DNA of 64,000 nt from Patescibacteria group bacterium (lineage in GTDB: Bacteria > Patescibacteriota > UBA1384 > XYA2-FULL-43-10 > 1-14-0-10-43-13), in NCBI GenBank assembly GCA_038078835.1, contig JBBTQI010000004.1:3352-67351 (forward strand). Direction: 5' to 3'. The position numbers and the translations under genes are program-made. This document shows positions 4,000-54,878 of this stretch, piece after piece. The notes below the pieces were generated by a model. That model worked only from the letters and a program-made list of their open reading frames with translations, had not been told where the DNA came from and searched no databases. Position 1 is the stretch's first letter. Every line of letters starts with the position of its first letter.

Positions 4000-4605
4000 A
4001 TGTCTAAGGATCGAATTCCAAGCGTTGTCCTGGAACGGACATTTGTTATGATCAAGCCCGATGGGGTTGAGCGGGGGCTGGTCGGCGAGATTGTCAAGCG
4101 GTTTGAGTCGAGAGGACTAAAGATTATCGCTCTAAAGATGGTCAAACCTTCAGTCGAACACATCGATCTGCACTATCCCAAAGACGAGAGTTGGATTGAG
4201 CGCTTGGGTGAAAAGGGTTTTAATGTTTTTGCCGAGTACGGCTTAGACCCCAAGGAGTATATGGGTACCGGCGACAAGAAAGAGGCGGGAAAAATGGTGC
4301 GGGACTGGCTGGTGCAGTATATTGCCGATGCGCCGGTTGTGGCAATGGTGATCCAGGGGATTCATGCCGTTGATATGGTGCGCAAGATCGTGGGTTCAAC
4401 GTTGCCCAATAAAGCAGATATTGGTACCATTAGAGGTGATTACTCTATTGATTCACCTGCCGCCGCGAATTTAAGCAAAAGAGCGGTGAAGAACCTGATC
4501 CATGCTTCTGAAAACGCCGCTGAGGCCAAAAATGAGATCTCGCACTGGTTCTCGCAGGAGGAGATCTATGATTACGAGCGTGCCGACCACCGCTCTATGT
4601 TTTAG
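4000..4605 (+). CDS. ndk: nucleoside diphosphate kinase with an ~45-aa internal insertion
   Basis: ERTFVMIKPDGVERGLVGEIVKRFESRGLKI.. is the canonical NDK N-terminus; RBS AGGAGAG upstream. Confidence 0.85.
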   Translation: MSKDRIPSVVLERTFVMIKPDGVERGLVGEIVKRFESRGLKIIALKMVKPSVEHIDLHYPKDESWIERLGEKGFNVFAEYGLDPKEYMGTGDKKEAGKMVRDWLVQYIADAPVVAMVIQGIHAVDMVRKIVGSTLPNKADIGTIRGDYSIDSPAAANLSKRAVKNLIHASENAAEAKNEISHWFSQEEIYDYERADHRSMF

Positions 4606-4762
4606 CTGTAGCTAAAACATAGAAAGTCCGAAATCTTAAATCCGAAGGTCGAAACAATAATTGAATGCTCAAAATGCAAACAACAGGTCTTTTTGGAAAT
4701 TTGAGATTTTGGTCATTTGAATTTGTTTAGGGTTTAGAGATTAGATATTCGGATTTTTAATT

Positions 4763-6436: not shown

Positions 6437-9400
6437 TTAGACCACATTCTCTGTGCCGACAAGTTCTTTGAGTTGCTTTAGGACCACCGGAGTCGGGTGG
6501 GTTTTTTGTTTGATCTTAATTTCTTTGTAACTCGAATCGTTATTGGGAATTTTAAGAATAATGCCGGCCTCGCCCGGGTGCTTGGTGATGACATCCTTGA
6601 TATCAGCTAAGATCGACTTATCGCAACCGGCAGGCAAAATAATGGTTAGCGGTTGGCGGTTAACAGTTAGTAGTTGGGGATTTTCTGCTGAAGGCTCCGG
6701 ACTTGAGGCCGAAGGTCCAAAAGTCCGAGATTCTTGTTTTCTCTCTTGCCTTCGGCCTTCGGCCTTCGGCCTATTGCTAAAAGCTCTAGCCTTTTTGCTT
6801 CGCGGCTCGAAGGCCGGTATTGACTTGCCCTCAGAGAGCTCCCGGATCGTTTCGGCGAGGATTTTGGGAGCGCCGTCCTTAAATGAGACGTATCCGTCAA
6901 CAGCGATAATTTTGTCGGTTTGCCACGGCTCCGGATTTGCTTCAAGCACCTTGGGAAAAGCAAGAACCTCAACATTGCCGGAGAGATCCTCCATTCGGGC
7001 GAAGATCATATTCTGGTTTGAGCGCGTCATTATCTTTTGAATGGTGGTAATGATGCCGGAAACGCGGACAAACTCACCCTCAATCTCCTCTCGGATTTCA
7101 TTTAAGGATTTGTTCCGGTTTGGTTCAAGGAGGTGGCCGACACCGGAGAGGGGATGCTCGGAAACATACATTCCCAGAAGCTCGCGTTCCCAGGAGAGAC
7201 GCTGCTTGCGATCGGCCGGCTTAGTCGGCTCCAGATCGATATTGCTGATCTCGATCTCGTCTCCTTCGCCGAAAAGAGAGCTCTGGCCGGCCACCTTATT
7301 TTTCTGAAAGGTGCCGGCAAAGGAGAGAATCTTATCCATATTATAGAGAAGTTCGGCCCGCTCGCCGAGATCATCCAGCGCGCCGGCCATCACCAGGGAC
7401 TCGAGCGATTTTTTATTGATAACCTTGGGGCCCAGACGGGTAATAAAATTTTTGAGGTCGGGATAGATTCCCTCCCGCTTTCGCTCCTCGACGATTTCCT
7501 CGGCCACGGCCAGGCCGACATTTTTGATGGCGGAGAGGCCAAACCGGACATTACTCGTGTCTTTGACAACACCAAAGTCGACGAACGACTCATTGACCGA
7601 GGGGGGCAAGACTTGAATACCCATGCGCTTGCACTCTTCGATCTCCATCGCCAGCTTGTCCAGATCGTCCTTGTTTGAGGTCATAAGCGCGGACATATAC
7701 TCCGGCGGGTAATTCGACTTGAGATAAGCGGTTTGATAAGCCACAATGCCGTAGCTGGCGGCGTGGGCCTTGTTAAAACCGTAGCCGGCAAAGGTCTCGA
7801 TTTGTTGCCAGAGTTCAGTGGCAACGTGTTTCTCCATTCCGCGCTCGATGATCTGTTTAAAGAACTTCTCTTTCTGGGCGGCCATCTCGGAGACAATTTT
7901 TTTACCGATTGCTTTGCGGAACTTGTCAACCTCCTGCCAGTTGTAGCCGGCCAGCTCGATGGCGATCATTAAAACATCATCTTGATAGACGATGAGGCCG
8001 AGCGATTTATCGAGGATCTTCTCCATCCGCGGATCGGCATAGGTGATGCGAGAAGGATTGTGTTTTCTGGCAACGTATTCGGGGATGAAGGCCATTGGCC
8101 CGGGCCGGTAGAGCGCCACCATCGCCATAATATCGTGAATGGTTGTCGGACGAAGTTCCTTAATATGTTTGCGCATACCCTCGCTTTCCAGCTGGAAGAT
8201 GCCGATTGTTTCGCCGCGCGACAGAAGCTCAAAGGCCTTTTTGTCATCAAGAGGGATCTCGTCCAGTTTGATATCAAGATCATGGGTCTTTCTGATAATG
8301 CGCAAAGCATTTTTGATAATCGAGAGGTTGGCCAGGCCCAAAAAGTCCATCTTGATTAGTCCGACACCATCCTCGCCGACGGCATGCATTTCGTACTGCG
8401 TGATCAGCCGCTCGTTTTTGGTATCCATCATGACGGGAGTGAAGTTGGTAATCTCCTCCGGCGCAATGACAACGCCGGCGGCGTGAACCGAGGCGTGGCG
8501 GACGACACCCTCCAGCTTTTTGGCGATGTCAATACACTCCTTAACCTGGGCGTTGGCGGCATAGAGATCCCGCAGTTCGGCAATGTTCCTCAGAGCCTCC
8601 TTCAGGTTCTGACCAAAGGGAATCAGCTTGGCGATAGCATCAACCTCGGCATAGGTCATACCCAGAACCCGGCCGACATCGCGCACCGCCATACGGGCGG
8701 CCATCGTGCCAAAGGTGATGATCTGGGCGACGTGATCTTTGCCGTATTTGTCAGCAACGTATTGAATAATGGCATCACGGCCGGAGTCGGCAATGTCGGC
8801 ATCAATATCCGGCGCGGAGGGGCGGAAGGGGTTTAAGAACCGCTCAAAGGGGAGGTTGTAGTCAAGCGGGTTTAGCTGCTTGGGTGTGATGCCGAGAGCA
8901 TAGGAGACAAAACAGCCGGCGGCCGACCCTCTGGTGTTGGTGGGGATGCCGTTTTCCTTGGCCCAGTTAAAGAAGTCCTGGACAATAAGAAAATAACCGA
9001 GATATCCTTTTTGCTTAATAACATCAAGCTCGTACTCCAGTCTCTCCTTCATTTGCGGCGTAATCTCCCTAACTCTTTGGGGCAGTCTTTCCCCAATGAG
9101 TTTGCGGAGATAGGTCTCGTAGGTTTCGCCTTGGGGCAGGGGAAATTGGGGAAACTTAAACCTTCCCAGTTCCATTTTAAGATTACATTTTTCGGCGATC
9201 TCCAGGGTGTTGGTGATGGTCTCGGGATGGTCAGAAAAAGCGGCCATCATCTGTTCGGCGGTTTTTAGGGAGTAGTCATCATCCTTCATCGAGAGACGAT
9301 TCGTATCATTCATCGTCCGGCCGGTTTGGAGACAGACAAGAGCGTCTTGGGCGATGGCGTCATCGGGATTGACGTAGTGAGTGTCGCAGGTGGCGACGAC

Positions 9401-10027: not shown

Positions 10028-10349
10028 TGGGATTGAATAATTACTCGGAATATGGCAGAATTGACAGTATGGGAGATGAGCTATGACTGAGCAGAAAAGA
10101 GTAGTATCTGCCGCCCTGGCACCGTCAACTCCGCCGGCACTGGTGCGGCGAGACCCCTCTTATGGCTGGGAGGGAGAAGACGAGGAAGACTTGTGGGGAG
10201 GTCCGGGACAACACCCGCTCTACCATCCAACCCGTCGCAACCATAATGTTCCGGCGGGGCAGCCTGCCCCTCACATCGAGACCAGGCCATGATAGGTTTT
10301 GCTCAGGGCTCGGTGGCTGAGTGCTGCCGAGCCTGTTTTTTCTAAACTA

Positions 10350-11738
10350 ATGCTGAAACCAGACAACAAATATTTTTTTGTTTTGGGGCGGGAGCGGGAG
10401 ATTGCCCGGGAGGAGCTGAGGGCGGTTTTGCGCCGCCTTAATTTTGGTTTTGGTGATTTAAATGTAACCGATAATATCGCCTTTGCCAATCTTGACAGGG
10501 ACGAGGCAGAGGTGGCGAAGTTAAGCGGGATATTGGGGGGGACTACAAAGATATTCAGGGCAACCCAATCAAAAATGGACAACGAACAATACGAACAACG
10601 GACAACGGACAGAGAATATTGTTCCAAGTTGATTGCAGGGTTAACTGCCGAGTTGATACGGCGGAAGAAACGGGGTGTGACGGGTAAGATTAACTTCGGA
10701 ATTTCCGATTATTCTAAAACCTTATCCAAGGAAAAGATTAATACCTTGGGATTAGAGGTAAAGCGTGCCTTGAGAGGTGATTTATCTCTCCGCTTTGTGC
10801 CAATTCGAGAAGGCCGGGAACTCTCAACCATCCAATCACTCAAAGGTGACCTTGCCGGCCGAGGGGTTGAGGTTGGTTTATTCGATCAAGGAATCGGTAT
10901 TTTGATTGGTCTGTCAAATCCGGAGGAGTGGGCGCGGCGAGATTACCAAAAGCCGGCCGGGGACAAGTATTCCGGCATGACGCCACCCAAGTTGGCGAGG
11001 ATGATGATCAATTTAGCTTTAAGCCAAAGGCCTAAGGCCGGAAGCAGAAAAGTCGAAGGCCGAAGGCCGAAGGTCGGAGGCCGGATCGGAACTGCCTTCA
11101 GCCTTCAGCCTTCGGCTTGCGTCGTGGTTGATCCCTTTTGCGGTTCGGGAAATATCTTAATGGAAGCCTTGATGCTGGGATGCGATATGATCGGGTCAGA
11201 CATAAGCGAGAAGGCAGTGGCTGATTCAAAAGCCAATGTTGATTGGCTGCTCGAGCAAATCCGAAATTCTAAATCCGAAATCCTAAACAAATCCGAAATC
11301 CAAAATTCAAATGTCAAAATATTTCAAGCTGATGCGACAGAATTAGATTTCCCCCCTCTATTTGAAAATTACGATCACTTTGTGGTCGTTACAGAGCCCT
11401 ACCTTGGTCAACCCAAGAAGATGAAACCGAGTTTCAATGCTGTAAGGGGTGAGTACACTAAGATCAAAAAGTTATATTTAGACTTCTTAAAAAACTTAGC
11501 ACTTTCACACTTTCACACTTTCACACTCTGCCTTGTTTTTCCTCTCGTTGAGAGTGTCGATCGGGGTCGATTTAGCCTTTATGCCGAGTCTGTTGACGAA
11601 ATCAGGAAATTGGGCTATACTGAACTACGTTCACCGCTTGTGTACGGCAGAGACTATCAGGTGGTGAAGAGGGAAATAGTCTTTCTCAATTTCCAAGAAC
11701 CAAATACCAAATCACAAATAAATTCCAATAGCCAATAA
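10350..11738 (+). CDS. class I SAM-dependent RNA methyltransferase (Trm11/COG1041-like, DPFCGSG motif) carrying four distinct in-frame repeat insertions
   Basis: N-terminus KYFFVLGREREIAREELRAVL and ..VVVDPFCGSGNILMEAL...GSDIS.. match the Trm11-like family; start chosen at ATG 10350. Confidence 0.6.
   Translation: MLKPDNKYFFVLGREREIAREELRAVLRRLNFGFGDLNVTDNIAFANLDRDEAEVAKLSGILGGTTKIFRATQSKMDNEQYEQRTTDREYCSKLIAGLTAELIRRKKRGVTGKINFGISDYSKTLSKEKINTLGLEVKRALRGDLSLRFVPIREGRELSTIQSLKGDLAGRGVEVGLFDQGIGILIGLSNPEEWARRDYQKPAGDKYSGMTPPKLARMMINLALSQRPKAGSRKVEGRRPKVGGRIGTAFSLQPSACVVVDPFCGSGNILMEALMLGCDMIGSDISEKAVADSKANVDWLLEQIRNSKSEILNKSEIQNSNVKIFQADATELDFPPLFENYDHFVVVTEPYLGQPKKMKPSFNAVRGEYTKIKKLYLDFLKNLALSHFHTFTLCLVFPLVESVDRGRFSLYAESVDEIRKLGYTELRSPLVYGRDYQVVKREIVFLNFQEPNTKSQINSNSQ
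11052..11116. repeat. palindromic heptamer-repeat element (GTCGAAGGCCGAAGGCCGAAGGTCGGAGGCCGG ...loop... GCCTTCAGCCTTCAGCCTTCGGC), in frame inside the methyltransferase gene
   Basis: About 24 bp imperfect inverted arms of GGCCGAA-type heptamers separated by a 9 nt loop. Confidence 0.6.
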
Positions 11739-11827
11739 TCAAATATTCAGAAATTGATATTTTGGAGCTTGGATCTTATTTGGAATTTGACATTTGAGAT
11801 TCGTGATTTTACTCCAAGGGAGTTATC

Positions 11828-14829: not shown

Positions 14830-15963
14830 ATGCACTCCAATCAAGGGCGAAAAATTAAGGTTGTCCAGGTGATCGCTGACTCAGCCCCGGGCGGCGGTCC
14901 CAGTCATGTTTTGGGTCTCCTAAAGCATCTCGACAAACAGCGTTTTGAGTGTTTTTTAATTTGCCCGTCGGGCTATCTGGCCAGGGAGGCCAAAAAGATA
15001 GCGGCGGTTGAAGTAATTAACCTCCCTTTTCGTTCCAAGTTTGATCTCTGGTCGCTCTGGCAATTTAATCGGATATTGCAGCAAATCAGGGTTAAAGGTG
15101 ATCCGTTCGGTTCGATGATTGTTCACAGCCATGGTTCACGGGCCGGCCTGGCGGCCCGCTGGCGGCGCCTGACCTTGGTTAAGTATATCTACACCGAGCA
15201 TCGCTTTGATGCCGATTTTCATCTTAAAAATTCTTTAAACGAGAAAGTTCAACTTTGGCTGTTGGGAGTACTCAATCATAAAACGGATTGGATAGTAGCT
15301 GTTTCCACATCGGTGGCTAATTTTTTACTGAAAAACAATTTGGCTCCGCCGGGTCGTCTGACTGTTATTCCCAACGCAATCGAGGCGGAGAGAATTAAGC
15401 CGCCCAATCTCCATTCATTCGCTAAAGCGCCGGTTATCGGCACGATCGGCAATCTCAACACCCAAAAGGGCCACTGCTACTTGATCAAGGCCTTTGATTT
15501 ATTGTCGCAAAAATATCCGGAGTCGAGATTAGAGATTGTCGGCGGAGGAGATCAGGAGGACAATATCAAATATCAAATATCAAATATCAAAAATAAGAAA
15601 GGAATTACTTTGTTGGGGAGGCGGGAGGAGCCGGAAAAATTTCTGAAAAAGTGGGATGTGTTTGTTTTGCCCTCGGTTGCCGAAGCTTTTGGCATTGTAC
15701 TTCTGGAGGCGATGGCCGCCGGTGTGCCGATCGTTGCCGCCAATGTTGGCGGTATTCCCGATATCATTGAGAACAATAAAAATGGCGTTCTGGTGCCGCC
15801 GCGGCAGCCGGAGGCCCTGGCTAAAGCAATAGGCGAGATACTTGACAATCAGGCAAAAGCGAGAGAACTCTCGCGGAGGGGGTTAGCAAGGGTTCAAGTT
15901 TTCACTTGGCCCAAGATCATTTCCAGGTTCCATAATCTCTACTTTGACACTCTTGCTGGATGA
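14830..15963 (+). CDS. glycosyltransferase family 1 (GT4-type retaining glycosyltransferase) with an in-frame (ATATCAA)x4 repeat
   Basis: C-terminal ..VFVLPSVAEAFGIVLLEAMAAGVPIVAANVGGIPDII.. is the Glycos_transf_1 signature. Confidence 0.75.
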   Translation: MHSNQGRKIKVVQVIADSAPGGGPSHVLGLLKHLDKQRFECFLICPSGYLAREAKKIAAVEVINLPFRSKFDLWSLWQFNRILQQIRVKGDPFGSMIVHSHGSRAGLAARWRRLTLVKYIYTEHRFDADFHLKNSLNEKVQLWLLGVLNHKTDWIVAVSTSVANFLLKNNLAPPGRLTVIPNAIEAERIKPPNLHSFAKAPVIGTIGNLNTQKGHCYLIKAFDLLSQKYPESRLEIVGGGDQEDNIKYQISNIKNKKGITLLGRREEPEKFLKKWDVFVLPSVAEAFGIVLLEAMAAGVPIVAANVGGIPDIIENNKNGVLVPPRQPEALAKAIGEILDNQAKARELSRRGLARVQVFTWPKIISRFHNLYFDTLAG

Positions 15964-32190: not shown

Positions 32191-33786
32191 ATGTCTTTTT
32201 ACCAAAAATATCGTCCGCAAAAGTTCGCCGATCTGGTGGGGCAGGATCATATCAGTCAAACCCTTCGGGAGTCAATCAAGAGGGACTGTTTAACTCATGC
32301 CTATCTTCTGACCGGCCCCCGCGGTATTGGCAAGACCACAACAGCGCGCCTCTTAGCCAAAGCAATTAATTGCCGGGACTCAACTGACCGGGCCAAGAGC
32401 GGCGAACCCTGCAATCAATGTGATTACTGCGTATCGATAAGCGGCGGTCGGGCCTTGGATGTTATTGAGATTGATGCCGCGTCTCACACAAGTGTTGACG
32501 ACATTCGGGACCTGATCGAAAAGGCTCGGCTGGCGCCGGCCAGTGCCAGAAAAAAAGTCTATATTATTGATGAGGTTCATATGCTCTCCAAGAGCGCTTT
32601 TAATGCCCTGCTCAAAACACTGGAGGAGCCGCCCCCCCATGTTGTTTTTATCCTGGCGACAACCGAAGTCCAGCGTTTGCCGGAGACGATCCTGTCCCGG
32701 ACTCAACGCTATGATTTTCGCCGGGCCAGCCAGAGTGATATTATAGCCAACTTGAAGCGGGTGGCGGCGGCAGAGGACATTGCGGTCGATACTGAGTCGC
32801 TCGAAATTCTGGCCGTGTTGGCTCGCGGAGCACAGCGTGATGCCGTTGGCTTGCTGGAGCAGGTCGCCGGCTACACAAATCAAATTACGATTGCAAGCAC
32901 CAGGGCAATTCTTGGGCTATCAAGCCAAGAGGAGACCTTTTCTTACTTGCGAGCTGTTTTTAATAACTTGACGGAGGAGGGATTAAAAATTGCTCATCGG
33001 CTCTACGATCAGGGAAGCGATATGGCCGTCTTTTATGCTGATGTTCTGGAGTTGCTCCGAAAAATCCTCCTGTATCGAGCCAGCGGTGAAGTGCTCTTTG
33101 AGGAGACCGAATCCAACGTGAAAAAGATCAAGGAACTGGGCGGTCGCGTCGCGACGGCAAATTTGATCAAGGCGGTCGGGTGCTTTATTGCTAACAGCAA
33201 ACTTCTCAAAGAGGTGTCTAACCCAGTCTTGCCGCTCGAGATGGCGACAGTGGAGGCGGCGCAGTTTTTCTCGGAACCCGGAACTCAGAATATCGAACTC
33301 AGATCGAACTCAGAACGAACTCAGAACACAGGGGCCGAAAAGAAGGAGACCAAATTGGAAACCCGGGCTCCAAGCGCCAAGTCTCGGACTCCTGAGCCGG
33401 CGATTCCGGATCCGGGAACGGCGGTAGACGAGAGTGTGGTGAAATCTCCTGCTCCGACACCGGTTTTAGAGATGACCGATGATCTTTGGTTGAGGCTTAC
33501 CCAAGCGGTTAAAGAGAAAAATTCAACACTGGCGGCCCTCTTGCGTGATGCCAAGCCGATTGAGGTTAGTCAGAAGAAGATGGTGCTGGGTGTTAAATTC
33601 CCCTTTCATCGGGATCGGATTTCGGACGCTAAGAATCGCCAAGTGTTGGAGAGTATTTTAAAGGATGCTGTCGGTGCGGAGTATCATCTGGAGTGCCGCT
33701 TAGTTGCGCCGGAGAAAAGAAAGTCGACCAAGACGGATGACCTTAATCTGGAGAAAGCGGTAGGGGAGGTGTTTGAGACGGAATAG
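32191..33786 (+). CDS. dnaX: DNA polymerase III subunit gamma/tau, with an in-frame (CGAACTCAGA)x4 repeat
   Basis: MSFYQKYRPQKFADLVGQDHI...LLTGPRGIGKTTTARLLAKAINC (AAA+ clamp loader, zinc module CxxC). Confidence 0.88.
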   Translation: MSFYQKYRPQKFADLVGQDHISQTLRESIKRDCLTHAYLLTGPRGIGKTTTARLLAKAINCRDSTDRAKSGEPCNQCDYCVSISGGRALDVIEIDAASHTSVDDIRDLIEKARLAPASARKKVYIIDEVHMLSKSAFNALLKTLEEPPPHVVFILATTEVQRLPETILSRTQRYDFRRASQSDIIANLKRVAAAEDIAVDTESLEILAVLARGAQRDAVGLLEQVAGYTNQITIASTRAILGLSSQEETFSYLRAVFNNLTEEGLKIAHRLYDQGSDMAVFYADVLELLRKILLYRASGEVLFEETESNVKKIKELGGRVATANLIKAVGCFIANSKLLKEVSNPVLPLEMATVEAAQFFSEPGTQNIELRSNSERTQNTGAEKKETKLETRAPSAKSRTPEPAIPDPGTAVDESVVKSPAPTPVLEMTDDLWLRLTQAVKEKNSTLAALLRDAKPIEVSQKKMVLGVKFPFHRDRISDAKNRQVLESILKDAVGAEYHLECRLVAPEKRKSTKTDDLNLEKAVGEVFETE

Positions 33787-35387: not shown

Positions 35388-36536
35388 ATGAAAAAATTGG
35401 TTTTAATTGATTCCAATGCCATTATCCATCGGGCATATCATGCCCTGCCGGCAAACCTCTCAAACTCCAAGGGCGAGCCGACCAATGTTACCTATGGTTT
35501 TGCCCTGGCCCTCATTAAAATCCTTGAGGAGATCAAGCCGGATTACATCGCCGCCGCCTTTGATCTGGCTGGCCCGACCTTCCGGCACATTGAATATAAA
35601 GAATATAAGGCCAAGCGGGTCAAAGCCCCTCAGGAGCTCTACGATCAGATTCCCAGAGTCAAGGAGATGCTTTCGGTTTTCGGCGTGCCCATTTATGCTG
35701 TGGCGGGATTCGAGGCTGATGATGTGATTGGAACGATTGTAGAACAGTGTAAGGATGGGGACACAATGGTCTATATCGCTTCAGGTGACCGTGATGTCTA
35801 TCAATTGTTAAATGGTCATGTTAGGGTTTTAATGCTTCATCGTGGCTTTTCGGAAGCGGAGATTTTTGACCACGACCACCTGCGGGAGAAATATAACTTA
35901 GACCCGGAGGACTTTATCGATCTCAAGGCCTTGATGGGCGATGCATCCGATAATATCCCCGGTGTGCCGGGAATTGGACCGAAAACTGCCACGGACTTGA
36001 TACAAAAATTTGATACGTTAGAAAAGCTTTATGTTGCTCTAGATTGTCATTCTGAACCCATTCGACAAGCTCAGGGCAAGCTCCGCGAAGAATCTAGCGG
36101 AGTGTCCGATGCGGTCGCCAAAGGCGACCTAGATCCTTCGGCTACGCCTCAGGATGACAGCGGTAAAAGATTGAGTGACACATATATTAAAGAAACCTCT
36201 AAACGGTTGGGTATCAAGGAAAGAATAGTGCGATTACTATGCCAACACGAAAACCAGGCTTTTCAGTCGAAGATGCTGGCTACTATCCGGCGAGATGTGC
36301 CGATTGAGTTTGATCTGGCCAAGGCCCGCTGGGGGCAGTATGATAAGGACAAAGTCCGCCGATTATTCGAAGAGCTGGAGTTCAAGTCATTGCTGAGAAG
36401 ATTTTCCAAGGATTATGAAGAGGCCGAAGGCCCAAGGCCTGTCCTGAGCGGAGTCGAAGGGCCGAAGGCTGAAGATGAGAAAAAGATCACCGAAGAGCAA
36501 AAGAAAAAAGATGAGCAGTTGAAGTTAGAATTATAA
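35388..36536 (+). CDS. polA: DNA polymerase I 5'-3' exonuclease domain (FEN-like) - first of two polA pieces; ends in a low-complexity tail containing GGCCGAA-type repeats
   Basis: MKKLVLIDSNAIIHRAYHALP....IAAAFD...FRHIEYKEYKAKR.. and LEFKSLLRRF match the PolA N-terminal nuclease. Confidence 0.8.
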   Translation: MKKLVLIDSNAIIHRAYHALPANLSNSKGEPTNVTYGFALALIKILEEIKPDYIAAAFDLAGPTFRHIEYKEYKAKRVKAPQELYDQIPRVKEMLSVFGVPIYAVAGFEADDVIGTIVEQCKDGDTMVYIASGDRDVYQLLNGHVRVLMLHRGFSEAEIFDHDHLREKYNLDPEDFIDLKALMGDASDNIPGVPGIGPKTATDLIQKFDTLEKLYVALDCHSEPIRQAQGKLREESSGVSDAVAKGDLDPSATPQDDSGKRLSDTYIKETSKRLGIKERIVRLLCQHENQAFQSKMLATIRRDVPIEFDLAKARWGQYDKDKVRRLFEELEFKSLLRRFSKDYEEAEGPRPVLSGVEGPKAEDEKKITEEQKKKDEQLKLEL

Positions 36537-37513: not shown

Positions 37514-38820
37514 TGGGTTGGTTATCTGTTATGTGGTCACATCTTAAGGAAAAGGGTGTGGTTTTGCCCAAAATAACGGCGGAGGAGATCTCCAAAAAGG
37601 TGGAGCCGGTTTTGCGTGAGATGGAGAGAGTTGGCGTGATGATCGATGCTTCGATTCTTGAGGGGCTAGAAGATAAACTCGAGACTCGGATATCGAAACT
37701 CGAAACTAAAGTACATAGGTTGGCGGGCCGGGAGTTTAACATCAATTCACCGCTGCAGCTGGCAGAGGTGTTGTTTCGAGATCTTCGTTTACCCTCAACC
37801 GATCTCAAACGGACCAAGACGGGCGTCTCCACGGCGGCGGGCGAACTGTTAAAGCTTAAAAGCCGCCATCCGATTATCGAGCCGATCCTGGAGTATCGGG
37901 AATTAGCTAAGCTGGTCTCAACATATTTAAAGCCCCTGCCCCGGATGGTTGATGCCGACTCCCGGATTCACACCACCTACGGCCAGGAGACCTCGACCGG
38001 CCGCATCACCTCGGCCAACCCGAATCTGCAGAACATCCCCATCAAGGGGGAATACGGCCCGGAGATCCGGCGGGCTTTTGTGGCGGCGCCGGGATGCAAG
38101 CTGGTGGCAGGGGATTACTCTCAGATTGAGTTGAGGATTGTGGCTTGCCTGGCCCAGGACAAGACAATGATGGCGGCTTTTGCCGGCGGCGAAGATATTC
38201 ACGCCCAAACTGCCTCGGAGATATTTAATGTGCCGCTAAATAGAGTCACTTCGGATCAGCGCCGGGTAGCCAAGACCGTTAACTTTGGTGTTCTCTATGG
38301 TATGAGCGCTTATGGCCTCGCACAGGCGCTGGGCATCTCGCGCGAACAGGCGGCTGATTATATTAAACGCTACTTTGAGATTCATGAAGGTATTAAAAAG
38401 TATTGCCATGATGTTATTGCCAAGGTCGCTAAGGATAAGTACACTGAGACTCTCTTTGGCTTCCGCCGGTCATTTGAAAACTTTAACCGCTACAATCACA
38501 ATTTGGTTGAGGCGGAGGAGCGGATGGCGATCAATGCGCCGGTTCAGGGGACAGCGGCGGAGATTCTCAAATTGGCGATGGTTGAATTGATCAAGAAACT
38601 GAAGGAAGTCCCTCACCCCAACCCTCTCCCTGCAGACAGGGCGAGGGAGTCTGCAAGGTTGATATTGACGGTGCATGATGAGATCGTTGTCGAGGTGCCG
38701 GCAAGGTCTGCGGAAGAGATGGCAAGACTTGTTAAAGAGACAATGGAGAGCGTGGTAAAATTATGTGTTCCGCTCAAGGCGGAGGTTGGTATCGGTCGGA
38801 ATTGGGCGGAAACTAAATAG
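37513..38820 (+). CDS. polA: DNA polymerase I polymerase (palm/fingers/thumb) domain - second polA piece; start ATG 37513 (overlaps the toxin stop, TAATG) or 37531; contains an in-frame palindromic insert
   Basis: ..DYSQIELRIVA.. (motif A), ..RRVAKTVNFGVLYG.. (motif B), ..VHDEIVVEV.. (motif C). Confidence 0.8.
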   Translation: MGWLSVMWSHLKEKGVVLPKITAEEISKKVEPVLREMERVGVMIDASILEGLEDKLETRISKLETKVHRLAGREFNINSPLQLAEVLFRDLRLPSTDLKRTKTGVSTAAGELLKLKSRHPIIEPILEYRELAKLVSTYLKPLPRMVDADSRIHTTYGQETSTGRITSANPNLQNIPIKGEYGPEIRRAFVAAPGCKLVAGDYSQIELRIVACLAQDKTMMAAFAGGEDIHAQTASEIFNVPLNRVTSDQRRVAKTVNFGVLYGMSAYGLAQALGISREQAADYIKRYFEIHEGIKKYCHDVIAKVAKDKYTETLFGFRRSFENFNRYNHNLVEAEERMAINAPVQGTAAEILKLAMVELIKKLKEVPHPNPLPADRARESARLILTVHDEIVVEVPARSAEEMARLVKETMESVVKLCVPLKAEVGIGRNWAETK

Positions 38821-38880
38821 AGTACTAAGTGTGAAAGTGAATACCGTCCCCTTTCACACTTAGTACTTTCACACTTTCAC
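38821..38880 (+). terminator. 17 bp perfect hairpin (AGTACTAAGTGTGAAAG...CTTTCACACTTAGTACT) followed by TTTCACAC heptamer repeats, immediately after polA
   Basis: Perfect inverted repeat 38821-38837 / 38851-38867; the heptamer TTCACAC also occurs in frame in the methyltransferase gene (11500-11530). Confidence 0.4.
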
Positions 38881-38891
38881 ACTTGTAAACC

Positions 38892-49811: not shown

Positions 49812-52100
49812 GTGAATTCGCGGGTCTTATTCGTGATTATTAGTGTTCTTGGAGGGCAGGTGGGACGGAAGCGGAAACACCCGAAACACAAGCAAAAGAA
49901 ACCAAAGTGGTACCAGCGGGAAAACGACTGGGGTGATTATGTCTTTGACTGGTCGCTCGGCCTCTCGGGCGAAGCCTGGCGGGAGATCTTTGCTTTTTTG
50001 ATTGTTATCGCCGCCTCTGTTGTCTTGCTGGGTTTCTTTGATTCGGCCGGAGTCGTGGGAGAGCGGGCCGTTGCGGTTACCCGCGGACTCTTTGGGCCGA
50101 TTGGCGCTTATATTTTTACCCTCATCTTTCTTTATGCGGGGATAATTATGGTTATTCCCCAAAAGAGGTATCGACTCTCTAAGTTTATCGGCCTCTTTCT
50201 TTTCGTGGCGGCGATCACAACTTTTATCCACCTTTTTATTCCGGTTGAGGAGTCGGCGGGAGCGGCGGCGGAGTCGCGCGGCGGAGGGTACTTGGGCTAT
50301 TTGGTCTCAACGCCGCTGCGTCAGGCTATCGGTCTTTTCCCCACCTTCCTTTTCTCTATCTCTCTTCTGGTTATCTCTTTTCTGCTGACTTTTAATTTTT
50401 CCATCAGTCAGTATCTGGGTTGGGACAAAAAGAAGAGTGAGGAGGAGGAAGGGGCTGAGACCCGGTCTCAGGTTCACGCTTCGACGCGGGTTTCTGTCTT
50501 TGAGGCGGTCCGGCGGCGGATTACGGCTATTCGCCAGGCCCACGGCAGTCGGGCCAAGGCGCCGGTTCTTGAGGTTGAAAACCCGCTTGAACGCCGCTTG
50601 CCGGCGGGAAGGCAGAATCTGGCTTGGGAGTATCCGCCGATCGAGATGCTCAAGGACTCCGATGAGGTTGCCAGCTCGGGCAACATTCAGAAGAATGCTG
50701 AGACTATCGGCAAGACCTTGAAGAATTTTAATATTGAGACAACGATGGGTGATGTTAACATCGGTCCGACCGTTACCCAGTACACCTTAAAGCCGAGTGA
50801 GGGGGTGAAGTTAAACCAGATCGTTGCCCGTCAGAATGATCTCGCCTTGGCCCTCTCGGCCAAGAGTATCCGGGTCGAAGCGCCAATCCCGGGTAAAAAT
50901 GCTGTCGGCATCGAGATCCCCAACAAAGTGGCAGCCAAGGTAACTTTGCGCGAAGTGTTGATCTCCAAGGAGTTTAAAAATATTAAAAGCAAATTGGCAC
51001 TCTCGCTCGGCCGGGATGTGGCGGGTGAACCTGTGGCCATTGACTTGGATCGGATGCCGCATCTTCTTATTGCCGGCGCGACCGGATCGGGCAAATCGGT
51101 TTGTATTAACTCGATTATTATTACTCTGCTCTACAACAATGCCCCGGATGATTTGCGCCTGCTTTTGGTCGATCCCAAACGGGTAGAGCTGACCGGATAT
51201 AATGGTATACCGCATTTGCTGGCACCGGTTGTGACAGAGGTCGACAAGACGGTTTCAACCCTAAAGTGGGCAGTGCACGAGATGGAGCGGCGCTATGACC
51301 TCTTCTCTCGACTTGGGCGGCGCAACATTGCCGCTTACAACACCGCACCCGCGCCCGAGGAGGGTCCTCTGCCCTACATTGTGATCGTTATCGATGAGTT
51401 GGCTGATCTGATGGCCAGTTCAGCCAAGGAGGTTGAGGGTTCAATTGTCAGACTGGCTCAGATGGCGCGGGCAATTGGGATTCATCTGATTGTCGCCACC
51501 CAGCGTCCCTCGGTTGATGTGATTACCGGTTTAATCAAGGCCAATATCCCTTGCCGCGTTGCCTTTGCGACCGCCTCCCAGGTTGATTCCCGGACGATTT
51601 TGGATGTAACCGGCGCCGAGAAGTTGTTGGGCAATGGCGATATGCTCTTTATGGGCAACGGTGTCGAAAAACCGCGGCGCGTTCAGGGCTGCTATGTTTC
51701 CGATAATGAGATTGAGGAGGTTAACAGTTTTCTGCGGAGCAAGGGAGAGGCGCAATACGATGAATCGATACTGACTTTCAGGACCGGCAGCAAGAGCGTC
51801 GGTGCCTTTGGCGGCGATGGTTCAGCCGAGGATGGTCTCTATGACGAAGCAATTGAAACGGTGCTGAACGCCGGCAAAGCCTCTGCTTCGCTCTTGCAGC
51901 GGCGCTTGCGTATTGGCTATGCCCGGGCGGCGCGCTTGCTTGATATACTCGAAGAAGCCGGAGTAATCGGTCCGGCCGAGGGCGCCAAGCCGCGCGATGT
52001 CCTGATCGCCGGCACCGGCCGGGAGACGTTCCAGCCGCACGGGGAGGGGGCGGCGCTTAACAATTCGGATTATGGCCGAGACAACAGTGAGTACATGTAG
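49812..52100 (+). CDS. ftsK: DNA translocase FtsK/SpoIIIE (basic N-terminus, 4 TM, linker, motor domain, C-terminal winged-helix gamma domain); exact start uncertain (GTG 49812 or 49857)
   Basis: ..LLIAGATGSGKSVCINSIIITLLY.. (Walker A), ..VIVIDELADLM.. (Walker B), gamma domain ..LLQRRLRIGYARAARLLDILE.. Confidence 0.85.
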   Translation: MNSRVLFVIISVLGGQVGRKRKHPKHKQKKPKWYQRENDWGDYVFDWSLGLSGEAWREIFAFLIVIAASVVLLGFFDSAGVVGERAVAVTRGLFGPIGAYIFTLIFLYAGIIMVIPQKRYRLSKFIGLFLFVAAITTFIHLFIPVEESAGAAAESRGGGYLGYLVSTPLRQAIGLFPTFLFSISLLVISFLLTFNFSISQYLGWDKKKSEEEEGAETRSQVHASTRVSVFEAVRRRITAIRQAHGSRAKAPVLEVENPLERRLPAGRQNLAWEYPPIEMLKDSDEVASSGNIQKNAETIGKTLKNFNIETTMGDVNIGPTVTQYTLKPSEGVKLNQIVARQNDLALALSAKSIRVEAPIPGKNAVGIEIPNKVAAKVTLREVLISKEFKNIKSKLALSLGRDVAGEPVAIDLDRMPHLLIAGATGSGKSVCINSIIITLLYNNAPDDLRLLLVDPKRVELTGYNGIPHLLAPVVTEVDKTVSTLKWAVHEMERRYDLFSRLGRRNIAAYNTAPAPEEGPLPYIVIVIDELADLMASSAKEVEGSIVRLAQMARAIGIHLIVATQRPSVDVITGLIKANIPCRVAFATASQVDSRTILDVTGAEKLLGNGDMLFMGNGVEKPRRVQGCYVSDNEIEEVNSFLRSKGEAQYDESILTFRTGSKSVGAFGGDGSAEDGLYDEAIETVLNAGKASASLLQRRLRIGYARAARLLDILEEAGVIGPAEGAKPRDVLIAGTGRETFQPHGEGAALNNSDYGRDNSEYM

Positions 52101-52103
52101 CTT

Positions 52104-52190
52104 AAAGCTTGAAACCTGAAACTTGAAACCTGAAGAGATAAAGTTTCAAATATTAAGCTACAAGTTTCAAGTTTCAGGTTTTAACTATTT
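52104..52190 (+). terminator. long imperfect inverted repeat built from GAAACYTGAAAC units after ftsK (hairpin/terminator-like)
   Basis: CTTGAAACCTGAAACTTGAAACCTGAAG ... CAAGTTTCAAGTTTCAGGTTTT. Confidence 0.4.
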
Positions 52191-54695: not shown

Positions 54696-54878
54696 ATCAA
54701 TAAATCCTAAATCCTAATTTCTAAATCCTAAAGAAATCCAAATGTTCAAATTCCTAAACTTTAAAAAACCTTTGGTTATTGGAAATTGTTTAGGATTTAG
54801 TGCTTGGAATTTAGGGTTTTAACTGTTTATCATTTTGCATTTTGACTTTTGCATTTTGATTTAATACTAGGAGGGTTT

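Follow-up and report, generated by a model that had tools for sequence, protein, structure and literature searches.

In the window, by which we mean the whole 64,000-nt stretch of DNA analysed here, a conserved methyltransferase gene carries five translated tandem arrays, with a period of 7 in four cases and of 8 in one, as detected by TRF and a lag-7 scan. The arrays belong to a DNA-level class that is specific to period 7 and pervades the host genome and most related Berkelbacteria-like Patescibacteria, and that is strongly depleted in coding DNA generally. Our verdict is that the arrays in the methyltransferase (MTase) gene are a variant of the STRR-like heptamer repeats and of the RPE-like in-frame insertions. 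The original prediction, which was made from the letters of the DNA, had placed four repeat segments in this gene; TRF confirmed all four in the positions given for them and added a fifth in the C-terminal tail. The features discussed below are collected in Table 1.

Table 1. Positions of the methyltransferase gene, its repeat segments and related elements in the window
Feature	Position	Strand	Description
Imperfect ~130-nt hairpin between ndk and the GT4 gene	4624..4760	+	Outer arms AAGTCCG/AAATCTT/AAATCCG, related to repeat (c); z -2.0
GGCCGAAGG array and partner arm in DnaE	6675..6780	-	Variable C-terminal linker, RPKAEGRRQ...FGPSASSPEPSAE; z -1.8
MTase ORF, 462 aa	10350..11738	+	THUMP-like N-terminal domain and class-I SAM methyltransferase domain, Trm11-like predicted fold
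Repeat (a)	10577..10611	+	GGACAAC-type heptamers, ~4.7 units, one 2-nt indel; residues 76-88 (DNEQYEQRTTDR); TRF
Repeat (b)	11023..11121	+	Hairpin with complementary heptamer arms, (G)GCCGAAG x8.6, then GCCTTCA/GCCTTCG; residues 225-258
Motif I, DPFCGSG (SAM binding)	11130..11150	+	Intact, in frame, downstream of repeats (a) and (b)
Repeat (c)	11257..11306/20	+	AAATCCG/AAATTCT/AAATCCA (also AAATCCT) heptamers, ~7.6 units, period 7/14; residues 303-324 (QIRNSKSEILNKSEIQNSNVK); TRF
Motif IV position, EPYLG	11394..11408	+	Residues 349-353; conserved family-wide; not the canonical (D/N)PP(Y/F)
Repeat (d)	11500..11527	+	Perfect CACTTTCA x3.5, 8-nt unit; residues 384-393 (ALSHFHTFTL); TRF
Long hairpin across the MTase stop codon	11697..11803	+	35-nt arms, 74% complementary; upstream of rpmA
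Fifth array	11699..11720	+	ACCAAAT x3.1; encodes the C-terminal tail (pLDDT 43-57); TRF
Small hairpin ACUCC-AAG-GGAGU	11805..11827	+	Predicted to sequester the Shine-Dalgarno sequence immediately preceding GTG 11828, the start of rpmA
Hairpin after polA	38821..38887	+	Repeat (d) unit CACTTTCA in the stem and in a 3' extension; 17-bp perfect stem, z -5.8

The methyltransferase and its predicted fold

The gene encodes a conserved CPR protein with THUMP-like and Rossmann-fold SAM methyltransferase domains. Its host is an uncultured groundwater member of the Patescibacteria (CPR), known as a MAG, and the protein is 100% identical to one from a Patescibacteria MAG (P0001). The start codon is ATG 10350 rather than the upstream TTG 10299: the N-termini of the orthologues agree with the ATG, and a terminator at 10306-10334 falls within the longer, TTG-started ORF. 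The gene order dnaE - MTase - rpmA - rplS is conserved.

An AF2 model of the protein (pLDDT 84.6, pTM 0.87) gave archaeal Trm11 as its best Foldseek matches (6zxv/5e71, E 5e-18, target TM 0.68), with full-length matches also to Trm14 and RlmKL. Judging from this model, the name 'Trm11-like' holds at the level of the fold only. The MTase has the two-domain architecture in common with archaeal and eukaryotic Trm11 (the tRNA m2G10 methyltransferase), Trm14 and RlmKL, over full-length alignments, and its motif I is likewise of the DxFxGxG form; it differs from these relatives in being only 14-16% identical to them, in having ~70 extra residues encoded by repeats, and in having EPYLG at the motif IV position. 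The protein falls under the curated thresholds, with 21.3 against 22.3 bits for PF01170 and 43 against 316.6 bits for TIGR01177, the latter match covering motif I alone.

The DPFCGSG sequence had been described as an intact catalytic motif. It is intact, but it is the SAM-binding motif I, in which columns D261, P262, F263, C264, G265 and G267 are invariant in an alignment of 28 sequences. At the motif IV site, E349, L352 and G353 are invariant in the same alignment and P350 is nearly so. (T)EPYLG is family-invariant where the (D/N)PP(Y/F) of amino-methyltransferases would be expected, an equivalence judged by position only.

Five repeat segments in one reading frame

In the alignment, the reading frame and the conserved motifs run on across every repeat segment, and in the AF2 model the segments are predicted to be loops, linker or tail; their sites are rich in indels. 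The peptides originally quoted for the segments proved correct on translation.

Repeat (a) was found where it had been placed, with a unit of 7 nt according to TRF and not of 8 nt as proposed. A mismatch search with this unit gave 3 matches at the site, against 0.31 expected window-wide. The segment forms a low-confidence stretch of the THUMP-like domain (pLDDT ~60), and the site is indel-rich in the orthologues, where L018, L029 and L031 have arrays of their own. Repeat (b), predicted as a palindromic element, is indeed a hairpin, although it begins ~30 nt further 5' than had been thought. TRF resolves it into GCCGAAG x8.6 at 11023-11083 and GCCTTCA at 11094-11113/21; its 28-nt arms are 79-88% complementary, with fold z-scores of -3.2 as DNA and -4.4 as RNA. 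It occupies the linker between the THUMP and MTase domains, directly before beta-1 and motif I, and is disordered in the model (pLDDT ~41). Its unit has 17 matches window-wide, against 0.92 expected, and its site is the commonest array site in the orthologues, with 22 arrays. A search for known RNA families gave no match at the gathering threshold, only spurious matches of miRNA hairpin type to repeat (b) (E ~0.2-1).

Repeat (c) lies in a loop of the Rossmann domain (pLDDT 75-80), at a site with 12 orthologue arrays. Repeat (d), in which three units make 24 nt or 8 codons, lies in another loop of that domain and extends from a helix end into the beginning of a conserved strand (pLDDT 83-95); there are 8 arrays of period 7 or 8 at this site, counting that of the window, and the orthologues have different units. 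Repeats (a), (c) and (d) showed no fold of their own beyond that of shuffled sequences, repeat (b) being the only palindromic one.

Assembly and array length

The source is a metagenome assembly, and repeats are prone to misassembly, so an assembly or sequencing artefact in the form of a repeat-induced chimera had to be weighed, as had already been raised with the original prediction. However, the NCBI MAG, a Logan contig (ERR3858118) and ENA contigs of two Hainich assemblies agree in sequence over 3.2-7.4 kb with no indel, and eight independent contigs are identical. Moreover, every array is at most ~100 nt long and thus shorter than a read pair, the frame and the conserved motifs are unbroken through all arrays, and the same phenomenon is present in 35 other assemblies of unrelated studies. 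We regard the probability of an artefact as practically nil.

It had also been proposed that the gene is a contingency locus. Slippage by one unit would then turn the methyltransferase ON or OFF, as with AAGACTC in E. coli neuO. Units of 7 and 8 nt do shift the frame upon slippage, the in-frame heptanucleotide arrays of neuO are both phase-variable and functional (PMC13001214), and one Hainich assembly contains an inactivated MTase allele (L061). This allele, however, appears as a point nonsense mutation, A>T at 10842, and not as a change in repeat length. The arrays were identical in the eight independent contigs, and we found no copy-number variants either among these or in two flank-anchored metagenome scans. 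The arrays are also short and mostly imperfect, with a median of 3.7 units and a maximum of 8, compared with 3-53 units and most commonly 20 in neuO, and the reading frame is kept in 36 of 36 orthologues, as against neuO, which is OFF in 66% of genomes (PMC13001214). Finally, five independent switches would leave the gene OFF most of the time. The lack of length variation over eight contigs, together with 36 intact orthologues, therefore argues that the locus is neither misassembled nor, on present evidence, phase-variable, and we consider a contingency locus very unlikely.

Period-7 bias and array density

Approximate repeat runs in the window were dominated by period 7, with 11 runs against 0.07 in shuffles, followed by period 8 with 3 against 0.1, while period 6 had none; 4 of these 14 runs fall within the 1.39-kb MTase ORF (p = 2e-4). 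The same bias was seen in 36 MTase genes, which contain 45 arrays of period 7 (0.05 expected), 8 of period 8, and at most 1 each of periods 6, 9 and 12. Since periods 6, 9 and 12 are absent or nearly so inside these genes, we rejected selection for protein-level repeats; the repeats are a property of the DNA and not of the protein. Among the peptides of 119 further homologues, a period of 7 residues was found in 11 runs against 0.9 expected, the next most frequent periods being 9 and 11 with 3 runs each. Period 7 tops the repeat spectrum in ~27 of 37 related loci; neither the window nor related genomes have an excess of periods 6, 9 and 12.

Array densities were determined for arrays of period 7 or 8 (n = 129) in the window and 35 orthologous loci. 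The MTase gene has 1.09 arrays per kb, other coding DNA 0.063 and intergenic DNA 0.49, which makes the gene 17 times as dense in arrays as other coding DNA (p = 1e-35) and 2.2 times as dense as intergenic DNA (p = 7e-5). Of the 129 arrays, 87 are in ORFs, and 54 belong to the MTase orthologues, which make up ~7.5% of the DNA. The gene is thus a hotspot for simple repeats of intergenic type, as had been claimed, and is so beyond the host genome as well. The gene carries arrays in at least 26 of 35 related species, and none was detected in 10 of 36 MTase genes (the window being counted among the 36; examples are L008, L009 and L010). Close to the gene, within 250 nt, array density is 0.73 per kb, and past 500 nt it is ~0.03-0.15 per kb.

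Two-thirds of the intergenic arrays are paired with a complementary array to give long hairpins. Among 105 arrays we counted 62 different units; units are A/T-rich, with an average GC content of 28%, although those in the window are GC-rich. Of the 46 arrays inside the MTase genes, 16 are perfect. Arrays are equally short in coding and non-coding DNA, which is not predicted by simple slippage.

Comparison of orthologues

The orthologues vary in length from 386 to 608 aa around a core of ~400 aa, all 36 ORFs being intact, and the shortest (386-403 aa) are without long loop insertions. Arrays fall at ~8 protein positions, which correspond to the indel-rich columns of the alignment. Identical segments in orthologues, a possibility raised with the original prediction, did not emerge: where they could be aligned, the arrays of the window have a nucleotide identity of 0.19-0.62 to those of the orthologues, to which they are unrelated in sequence, and they are unique to their lineage. 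The nearest orthologue is ~50% identical, and no closer relative was found among genome contigs or in two metagenome scans with flank-anchored patterns. At these sites the orthologues also have unrelated inserts that encode low-complexity peptides, such as AEAGIQ and CHSERSEES, which we take to be typical of translations of palindromic elements.

Some arrays are nevertheless ~95% identical in nucleotide sequence between orthologues with saturated third codon positions, and the AATTAGA/AATTGAA unit types are confined to the MTase locus in at least 11 genomes. An array is the most conserved nucleotide window in 5 of 57 orthologue pairs (L001/L005, L007/L016, L004/L016, L021/L031 and L031/L037). 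The notion that arrays generally form the most conserved part of the gene was rejected, as it applies to these five pairs only and is untrue for the window. Between L022 and L004 we observed a clean insertion of 21 nt, or three heptamers.

Coding arrays are in frame and enriched for units that are stop-free in any rotation. A stop-free consensus unit on the sense strand was found in 61-77% of coding arrays versus 24% of intergenic ones, and 66 arrays have an A-rich sense strand, as against 19. In addition, in-ORF arrays of the AATTAGA/AATTGAA type have TTG/TGG in place of TAG/TGA ('escape' substitutions). From these in-frame arrays, either stop-free or escape-substituted, and from the conservation of the reading frame, we infer that the arrays are probably translated into hydrophilic low-complexity loops.

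Related arrays elsewhere in the window

Two segments had been said to recur outside the gene, and both do. AAATCC-type units like those of repeat (c) are present at 4624-4643 within the hairpin of the ndk-GT4 intergenic region, and again at 54701-54740, and the repeat (d) unit CACTTTCA occurs in and beside the hairpin after polA at 38824-38839 (-) and 38864-38887 (+). In total, four coding loci contain GGCCGAAGG and two loci contain CACTTTCA, far more than chance would give. The unit families of repeats (b) and (d) are also represented in dnaE, a 5'-3' exonuclease gene, a DUF2130 gene and the hairpin after polA. The DnaE linker that contains the array is different in every orthologue in a DnaE alignment.

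Such dispersed copies would be expected of a mobile element resembling a MITE, a REP/REPIN or a Rickettsia RPE, which a transposase would carry to permissive sites where its insertions are retained in frame. The recurrence of unit families at dispersed loci, the common hairpin architecture and the other low-complexity peptides inserted at the same sites in orthologues are all consistent with this, and in-frame insertion of hairpins in housekeeping genes is the hallmark of RPEs (PMC10969869). However, when the four GGCCGAAGG loci were aligned, the array alone was common to them: they share neither ends nor a spacer, and terminal inverted repeats and target-site duplications are lacking. Repeats (a), (c) and (d) consist of a single arm without structure, and the 62 units among 105 arrays yield no consensus for a family. 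Units also become less related with distance. In-gene units are within 1 mismatch of units no more than 300 nt away in 35% of pairs; for distant arrays in the same genome the share is 16%, and for other genomes 8%, which fits local copying better than transposition. A mobile origin in general seems rather improbable to us. As to specific candidates, a defined mobile element behind repeat (b) was rejected because ends and spacer are not shared at the four GGCCGAAGG loci, a MITE because the dispersed copies have no terminal inverted repeats, common ends or duplicated flanks, and an RPE-type element of defined length with a consensus because only the array is shared and only repeat (b) folds.

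Hairpins at the 3' end of the gene and in the rpmA leader

The 5' arm of the long hairpin across the MTase stop codon is built of ACCAAAT, CACAAAT and AAATTCC units, among them the fifth array, and encodes the C-terminal tail EPNTKSQINSNSQ, while its 3' arm (TTGGAGC...GAATTTG ACATTTG) is intergenic. The RNA fold has a predicted energy of -32.3 kcal/mol (z -2.9 to -4.1). Where the spacer between MTase and rpmA is at least 40 nt long, most orthologous loci have a comparable long hairpin there, those of L005, L007 and L016 being nearly identical. Repeat (c) is directly similar to 11694-11717, in the 5' arm, and 72% complementary over 25 nt to 11779-11804, with a perfect complementary match of 12 nt between 11307-11318 in repeat (c) and 11786-11797 in the 3' arm; on this similarity, repeat (c) is most probably a copy or paralogue of the 5' arm. 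The stem of the small hairpin that follows covaries over 15 loci, with UA/CG/AU/UG at one pair and 15 of 15 paired.

A selected function would be another explanation: either the peptides encoded by the arrays are useful as flexible linkers, or the arrays within the ORF act as RNA elements whose pairing with the rpmA-leader hairpin couples translation of the MTase to rpmA expression. This would agree with an array density above that of intergenic DNA, with the link of AATTAGA/AATTGAA to the locus in at least 11 genomes, with some arrays being the top-conserved nucleotide stretch of the gene between distant orthologues, with the predicted pairing between repeat (c) and the leader hairpin's 3' arm, and with the conserved leader architecture including the SD-sequestering stem. 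It is harder to reconcile with arrays that at shared sites are mostly unrelated and are top-conserved in 5 of 57 pairs only, with the 10 of 36 genes in which no array was detected and the shortest orthologues that lack long loop insertions, with the restriction of the window's arrays to one lineage, or with the structureless state of the main insert, repeat (b), in the AF2 model. Selected function is an unlikely explanation, with an appreciable residual chance of being right.

Origin of the arrays

The explanation that we favour combines slippage, local copying, tolerant loops and a local donor, and as a whole we judge it moderately probable. Arrays would arise by slippage-type errors of replication with a preferred register of 7 nt, and would then be copied among nearby, and occasionally distant, arrays through template switching or gene conversion. 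The loops of the MTase would accept insertions of almost any sequence. The conserved array-hairpin at the 3' end of the gene and in the rpmA leader would serve as the local donor, with repeat (c) and the tail as its copies or arms, while repeats (b) and (d) would derive from the unit families shared with dnaE, the exonuclease gene, the DUF2130 gene and the post-polA hairpin. The MTase gene would thus be a hotspot because its loops tolerate insertions and the array-hairpin donates locally. Once in frame, an array would be protected against slippage by single units, since the protein does not survive a change of 7 or 14 nt (a 'frame ratchet'), and this protection may account for the persistence of arrays in the MTase above intergenic density.

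Tolerance and a local donor may not fully explain why the density exceeds that of intergenic DNA. The locus-confined AATTAGA/AATTGAA units and the ~95% identical arrays hint at a sequence-specific constraint or factor that lies outside the model. One such possibility is that the MTase-rpmA locus is an actively maintained 'nursery' of heptamers throughout a CPR clade, in which the conserved and sequence-specific leader hairpin seeds the in-ORF arrays and continues to homogenise them, and these may in turn pair with it to tie rpmA expression to MTase translation; another is a dedicated heptamer-specific factor that generates or binds the repeats. We consider a nursery or such a factor doubtful, with a small but real chance of being correct. 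If true, it would explain the density above intergenic, the confinement of units to the locus in at least 11 genomes, and arrays that are nearly identical despite saturated synonymous sites.

The lineage offers a natural experiment on how non-triplet repeats come into genes of essential type and stay there: one class of non-triplet repeat is found both in intergenic hairpins and in conserved genes, and the reading frame records the events that survive. Because one gene has captured them repeatedly across dozens of species, metagenomes allow a direct measurement of rates of gain and loss, of the unit of change (7 versus 21 nt), of which arrays act as donors and which as recipients, and of what it costs to translate junk. 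There are practical consequences as well. In this clade the inserts inflate and diversify otherwise conserved proteins, one enzyme varying between 386 and 608 aa, they lower profile-HMM scores, leaving the MTase under Pfam and NCBIfam thresholds, and they may be mistaken for misassemblies or pseudogenes.

Relation to known repeat systems

Heptanucleotide STRR repeats were reportedly described in cyanobacteria by Mazel and colleagues in 1990, and Mrazek and colleagues are said to have found in 2007 that heptamer repeats are over-represented in many bacteria. Our own literature search brought up no relevant report on heptamer or palindromic repeats in CPR/Patescibacteria. In other bacteria, heptamer simple-sequence repeats are over-represented and polymerase slippage has been proposed, their origin being unexplained (PMC4692102). 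Examples are the STRR heptamers of heterocystous cyanobacteria and the GGGAATC / GGGGA(T/C)T heptamers of Xanthomonas and Nostoc (PMC4692102). The arrays described here have in common with STRR-like heptamers the tandem 7-nt units, the genome-wide over-representation of period 7, the occurrence of several unit types, and the inverted pairs or stem-loops. However, the STRR, Xanthomonas and Nostoc repeats are G-rich and reported essentially from intergenic DNA, whereas those studied here are A/T-rich on average and short (3-5 units), a large share of them lies in frame inside conserved genes with a concentration in one, and the host belongs to the CPR.

The neuO gene of the E. coli K1 phage CUS-3 has one long, perfect and hypervariable AAGACTC array of 3-53 units that switches the gene (PMC13001214). 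The likeness lies in heptanucleotide repeats within a coding region, whose translation passes through all three frames to yield a peptide repeat of 7 residues, with a product only when the frame is kept; the difference is that the MTase gene has five short, mostly imperfect arrays in which no length variation was seen.

RPEs are ~100-150 bp long and have a family consensus and a conserved encoded peptide (Ogata et al., 2000, as summarised in PMC10969869). Unlike RPEs, the present repeats have no element-length consensus, comprise many kinds of 7-mers, and are one-armed in three of five segments. What they have in common with RPEs is repeated and translated hairpin DNA in frame in unrelated housekeeping genes, at tolerant sites that leave the catalytic motifs untouched, in a reduced genome, and in these respects the behaviour of repeat (b) and of the insert in DnaE is exactly that of an RPE.

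The methyltransferase and its repeat segments

The THUMP and class-I SAM methyltransferase gene (hereafter MTase) encodes a product of 462 aa, with 100% identity to a protein from a 'Patescibacteria group bacterium' MAG; the surrounding gene order is dnaE(-) - MTase - rpmA - rplS. Pfam and NCBIfam matches to it were sub-threshold only and near motif I, and an MTase profile run against the PDB matched archaeal Trm11 across the same short stretch. An AF2 model with 28 homologues as input was confident (pLDDT 84.6, pTM 0.87), and Foldseek aligned this model over its full length with archaeal Trm11 (E 5e-18, target TM 0.68), Trm14 and RlmKL coming next; judged from the model, the original prediction of a Trm11-like methyltransferase is thus right at fold level. 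The 28-sequence alignment shows no variation in motif I (DPFCGSG) and has EPYLG at the motif-IV position.

The same prediction had placed four in-frame repeats, (a) to (d), in this gene. TRF and a repeat scan recovered every one of them, and a fifth array is located in the C-terminal tail. Only (b) forms a hairpin (DNA z -3.2, RNA z -4.4), the folds of (a), (c) and (d) being no better than shuffled sequence. In the AF2 model, (b) is the disordered THUMP-MTase linker (pLDDT ~41), (d) runs from a helix end into a conserved strand, and the tail (residues 450-462) has low model confidence. Units of (c) and (d) do recur, as had been noted, in the ndk-GT4 spacer and at the polA-terminal hairpin, respectively.

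Positions of the repeat arrays, hairpins and neighbouring features in the window
Feature	Position	Unit or structure	Protein or RNA context
MTase ORF	10350-11738 (+)		
Repeat (a)	10577-10611	GGACAAC, period 7, 4.7 copies, one indel	residues 76-88, pLDDT ~60
Repeat (b)	11023-11083, facing 11094-11121	GCCGAAG x8.6, facing GCCTTCA/GCCTTCG	residues 225-258
Repeat (c)	11257-11306/20	AAATCCG/AAATCCT	residues 303-324, pLDDT 75-80
Repeat (d)	11500-11527	CACTTTCA x3.5, perfect	residues 384-393
Fifth array	11699-11720	ACCAAAT	MTase C-terminal tail
GGCCGAAGG locus	6749-6771		DnaE linker
GGCCGAAGG locus			MTase, repeat (b)
GGCCGAAGG locus	36422-36475		5'-3' exonuclease tail
GGCCGAAGG locus	61937-61966		DUF2130 protein
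In-frame repeat		AATATCA x4.3	GT4 glycosyltransferase, NIKYQISNIK
In-frame repeat		11-mer x3.1	DnaX
In-frame repeat		non-triplet	5'-3' exonuclease tail
In-frame repeat		AAACTCG	PolA
In-frame repeat		non-triplet	DUF2130 protein
In-frame repeat		non-triplet	DnaE C-terminal linker
ndk-GT4 spacer hairpin	4624-4760	AAATCC-type units	
AAATCC-type units	54701-54740		
polA-terminal hairpin	38821-38887	CACTTTCA within and beside	
Intergenic array fold	38815-38890		z -5.8
Intergenic array fold	52100-52190		z -5.0
Long MTase-rpmA hairpin	11697-11803	35-nt arms	straddles MTase stop codon, RNA z -2.9 to -4.1
Small rpmA hairpin	11805-11827	ACUCC-AAG-GGAGU	directly 5' of rpmA (L27)
Candidate small RNA	10060-10345	GC-rich (~60%)	between dnaE and MTase, RNA fold z-score -1.9
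Terminator, intrinsic	10306-10334	plus a T6 run	
NDK ORF	4000-4605		201 aa

Across the window, approximate lag-7 runs numbered 11 against 0.07 in Markov shuffles and lag-8 runs 3 against 0.1, with no lag-6 runs; 4 of the 14 runs fall in the 1.39 kb of the MTase ORF (p = 2e-4). Selection of the repeats at the protein level would give periods of 3n, and since these are absent we rule it out. The unit of (b), GGCCGAAGG, has 17 matches against 0.9 expected, at four loci, each within a coding sequence and in sense orientation. Housekeeping genes other than MTase likewise contain in-frame non-triplet repeats (15562-15591, 33270-33331, 36421-36475, 37675-37707, 61937-61966 and 6644-6772).

Two other features were observed nearby. 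The non-coding interval between dnaE and MTase opens with a promoter-like TTGACA...TATGAC and closes with a strong terminator; gene callers report a 69-aa ORF there, without a Pfam match, Rfam gave no match to the interval, and we regard it as a candidate unknown small RNA. The Pfam NDK profile matched two stretches of the nucleoside diphosphate kinase ORF. The best of them begins at residue 93, aligned to profile position 49, which suggests an N-terminal extension or insert.

A clade-wide hotspot at recurrent sites

A scan of GTDB species representatives recovered orthologues at 37 loci of Berkelbacteria-like Patescibacteria, with 34-50% identity, and 35 full-length genes went into the analysis. 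In most of these loci the tandem-repeat spectrum is dominated by period 7, which the distant matches almost entirely lack (3 runs in 21 loci, L038-L058). The window gene and its 35 full-length orthologues together carry 45 period-7 and 8 period-8 arrays, where 0.05 and 0.1 would be expected; periods 6, 9 and 12 each account for no more than one array. Among 119 further homologues, available as proteins only, clear enrichment is confined to a period of 7 residues (11 runs vs 0.9). The idea that the MTase is a repeat hotspot is borne out by array densities in the window and 35 loci: 54 arrays in 49.3 kb of MTase orthologues (1.09/kb), compared with 33 in 526 kb of other ORFs (0.063/kb, p = 1e-35) and 42 in 85 kb of intergenic DNA (0.49/kb, p = 7e-5). 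The loci had been picked by gene and not by repeats, so this test is unbiased; the gene is a hotspot across the whole clade.

All segments lie in indel-rich columns of the alignments (28 and 36 sequences), orthologue length ranging from 386 to 608 aa around a core of ~400 columns. Arrays cluster at about eight sites (window residues 71-84, ~181, 229-254 with 22 arrays, 305-320 with 12, ~339, 387-389 with 8, and both termini), so that the window's four sites are recurrent. The orthologue alignment, proposed originally as a check, showed that the window's units are not common to orthologues, with identity of 0.19-0.62 where arrays align. In other lineages the same sites hold unrelated low-complexity inserts (...AEAGIQ..., ...DPRVKPEDD, CHSERSEES..., VIPSEVEESF...; proteins P0005, P0011, P0023, P0028, P0036, P0075 and loci L005, L011, L016, L029, L031, L034), which we take to resemble translated widespread palindromic repeat elements and which argue for a general structural tolerance.

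Two heptamers one base apart, AATTAGA (L004, L005, L007, L016, L024, L030) and AATTGAA (L001, L002, L005, L018, L023, L037), occur almost exclusively at the MTase locus, in at least 11 genomes, either within the gene or 52-61 nt 3' of its stop. The MTases of these genomes are just 40-55% identical; some of the arrays have 94-97% nucleotide identity between orthologues with saturated third codon positions.

Signs of a translation filter

For arrays in ORFs the A-rich strand is mostly the sense strand (66 arrays vs 19). The consensus unit is stop-free in every rotation for 61% of MTase, 77% of other coding and 24% of intergenic arrays; this is relevant, since reading through three 7-mers takes in all rotations. 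Within ORFs, AATTAGA and AATTGAA arrays carry TTG or TGG exactly at the would-be TAG or TGA; the resulting peptides include LKLEIRNY and WKLKIGNY. These features are signs of a translation filter. Between the orthologous loci L022 and L004 we found a clean insertion of 21 nt, that is, three heptamers. The DnaE C-terminal linker behaves in the same way, and is low-complexity and different in every orthologue.

Hairpins and local sharing of units

A complementary array within 150 nt accompanies two thirds of intergenic, 37% of MTase and 19% of other ORF arrays, and strong folds occur at two intergenic arrays of the window. In the long MTase-rpmA hairpin, the 5' arm is formed by the fifth array. 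Where the spacer of an orthologous locus measures 40 nt or more, an equivalent long hairpin followed by the small rpmA stem is in most cases present; the long hairpins of L005, L007 and L016 are nearly identical. The small hairpin is predicted to sequester the Shine-Dalgarno of rpmA. Elsewhere its pattern is NNCC-GAA-GGNN (L001, L002, L003, L005, L007, L014, L016, L020, L023, L024, L034); the stem covaries (UA/CG/AU/UG, 15/15 paired), is always preceded by the long heptamer-arm hairpin, and is possibly an undescribed ribosomal-protein leader.

Repeat (c) resembles the 5' arm of the long hairpin in direct orientation and is 72% complementary to its 3' arm over 25 nt, including a perfect 12-mer (11307-11318 / 11786-11797). 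Across genomes, 35% of comparisons between in-gene units and units within 300 nt show at most one mismatch, compared with 16% for distant arrays in the same genome and 8% for other genomes. Arrays number 0.73/kb up to 250 nt from the MTase and ~0.03-0.15/kb past 500 nt, and MTase-adjoining spacers hold 1.34 arrays/kb vs 0.44/kb in other spacers (p = 0.013).

Assembly and length variation

In the window protein's cluster the ORF is called from an upstream TTG on six contigs; the cluster also includes a Logan contig, plus an ENA contig on which the ORF is split. Misassembly and copy-number variation between strains had both been raised for these repeats; three contigs of the cluster (L059, L060, L061) aligned to the window with zero indels over 3.2-7.4 kb, which rules out misassembly, and no copy-number variation was seen among them. 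No further relatives turned up in JGI metagenomes, which were scanned twice with flank-anchored patterns. Heptamer repeats can be phase-variable, as in the neuO heptanucleotide array (PMC13001214), but array length, purity and invariance among contigs argue against a phase-variable MTase locus, as do the 36/36 intact orthologues. Arrays comprise 3-5 units, alike in coding and non-coding DNA.

L061 (ENA ERZ1292629, a 184.8-kb contig of a Hainich assembly) has three private SNPs, all inside the MTase within 58 nt (10785, 10806, 10842). The last, A>T, turns the codon of the nearly invariant Lys165 into a TAA stop, and gene calling therefore yields two pieces, of 181 and 192 aa; either some members of the population can do without the MTase or the change is an error in the consensus sequence.

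Discussion

All five segments belong to a period-7 class of DNA repeat. The arrays are lineage-specific and are kept in frame at permissive sites that recur in a conserved enzyme; from the conservation of frame, they are probably translated into loops. We propose that a slippage-type error in a 7-nt register gives rise to the arrays, which would spread, chiefly over short range, by template switching or conversion. Unusual loop tolerance together with the array-hairpin at the MTase 3' end could account for the hotspot, and in-frame arrays may be shielded from slippage by one or two units because this destroys the protein. A polymerase-slippage-type origin of heptamer repeats has already been proposed in other bacteria (PMC4692102).

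We found no literature report of the heptamer-repeat phenomenon in CPR bacteria. At the DNA level the closest known systems are the STRR of cyanobacteria and the heptamer repeats of Xanthomonas and Nostoc, which are intergenic and G-rich (PMC4692102). Closest in consequence are the Rickettsia palindromic elements, which have an element-length consensus (PMC10969869), whereas the repeats described here are without one.
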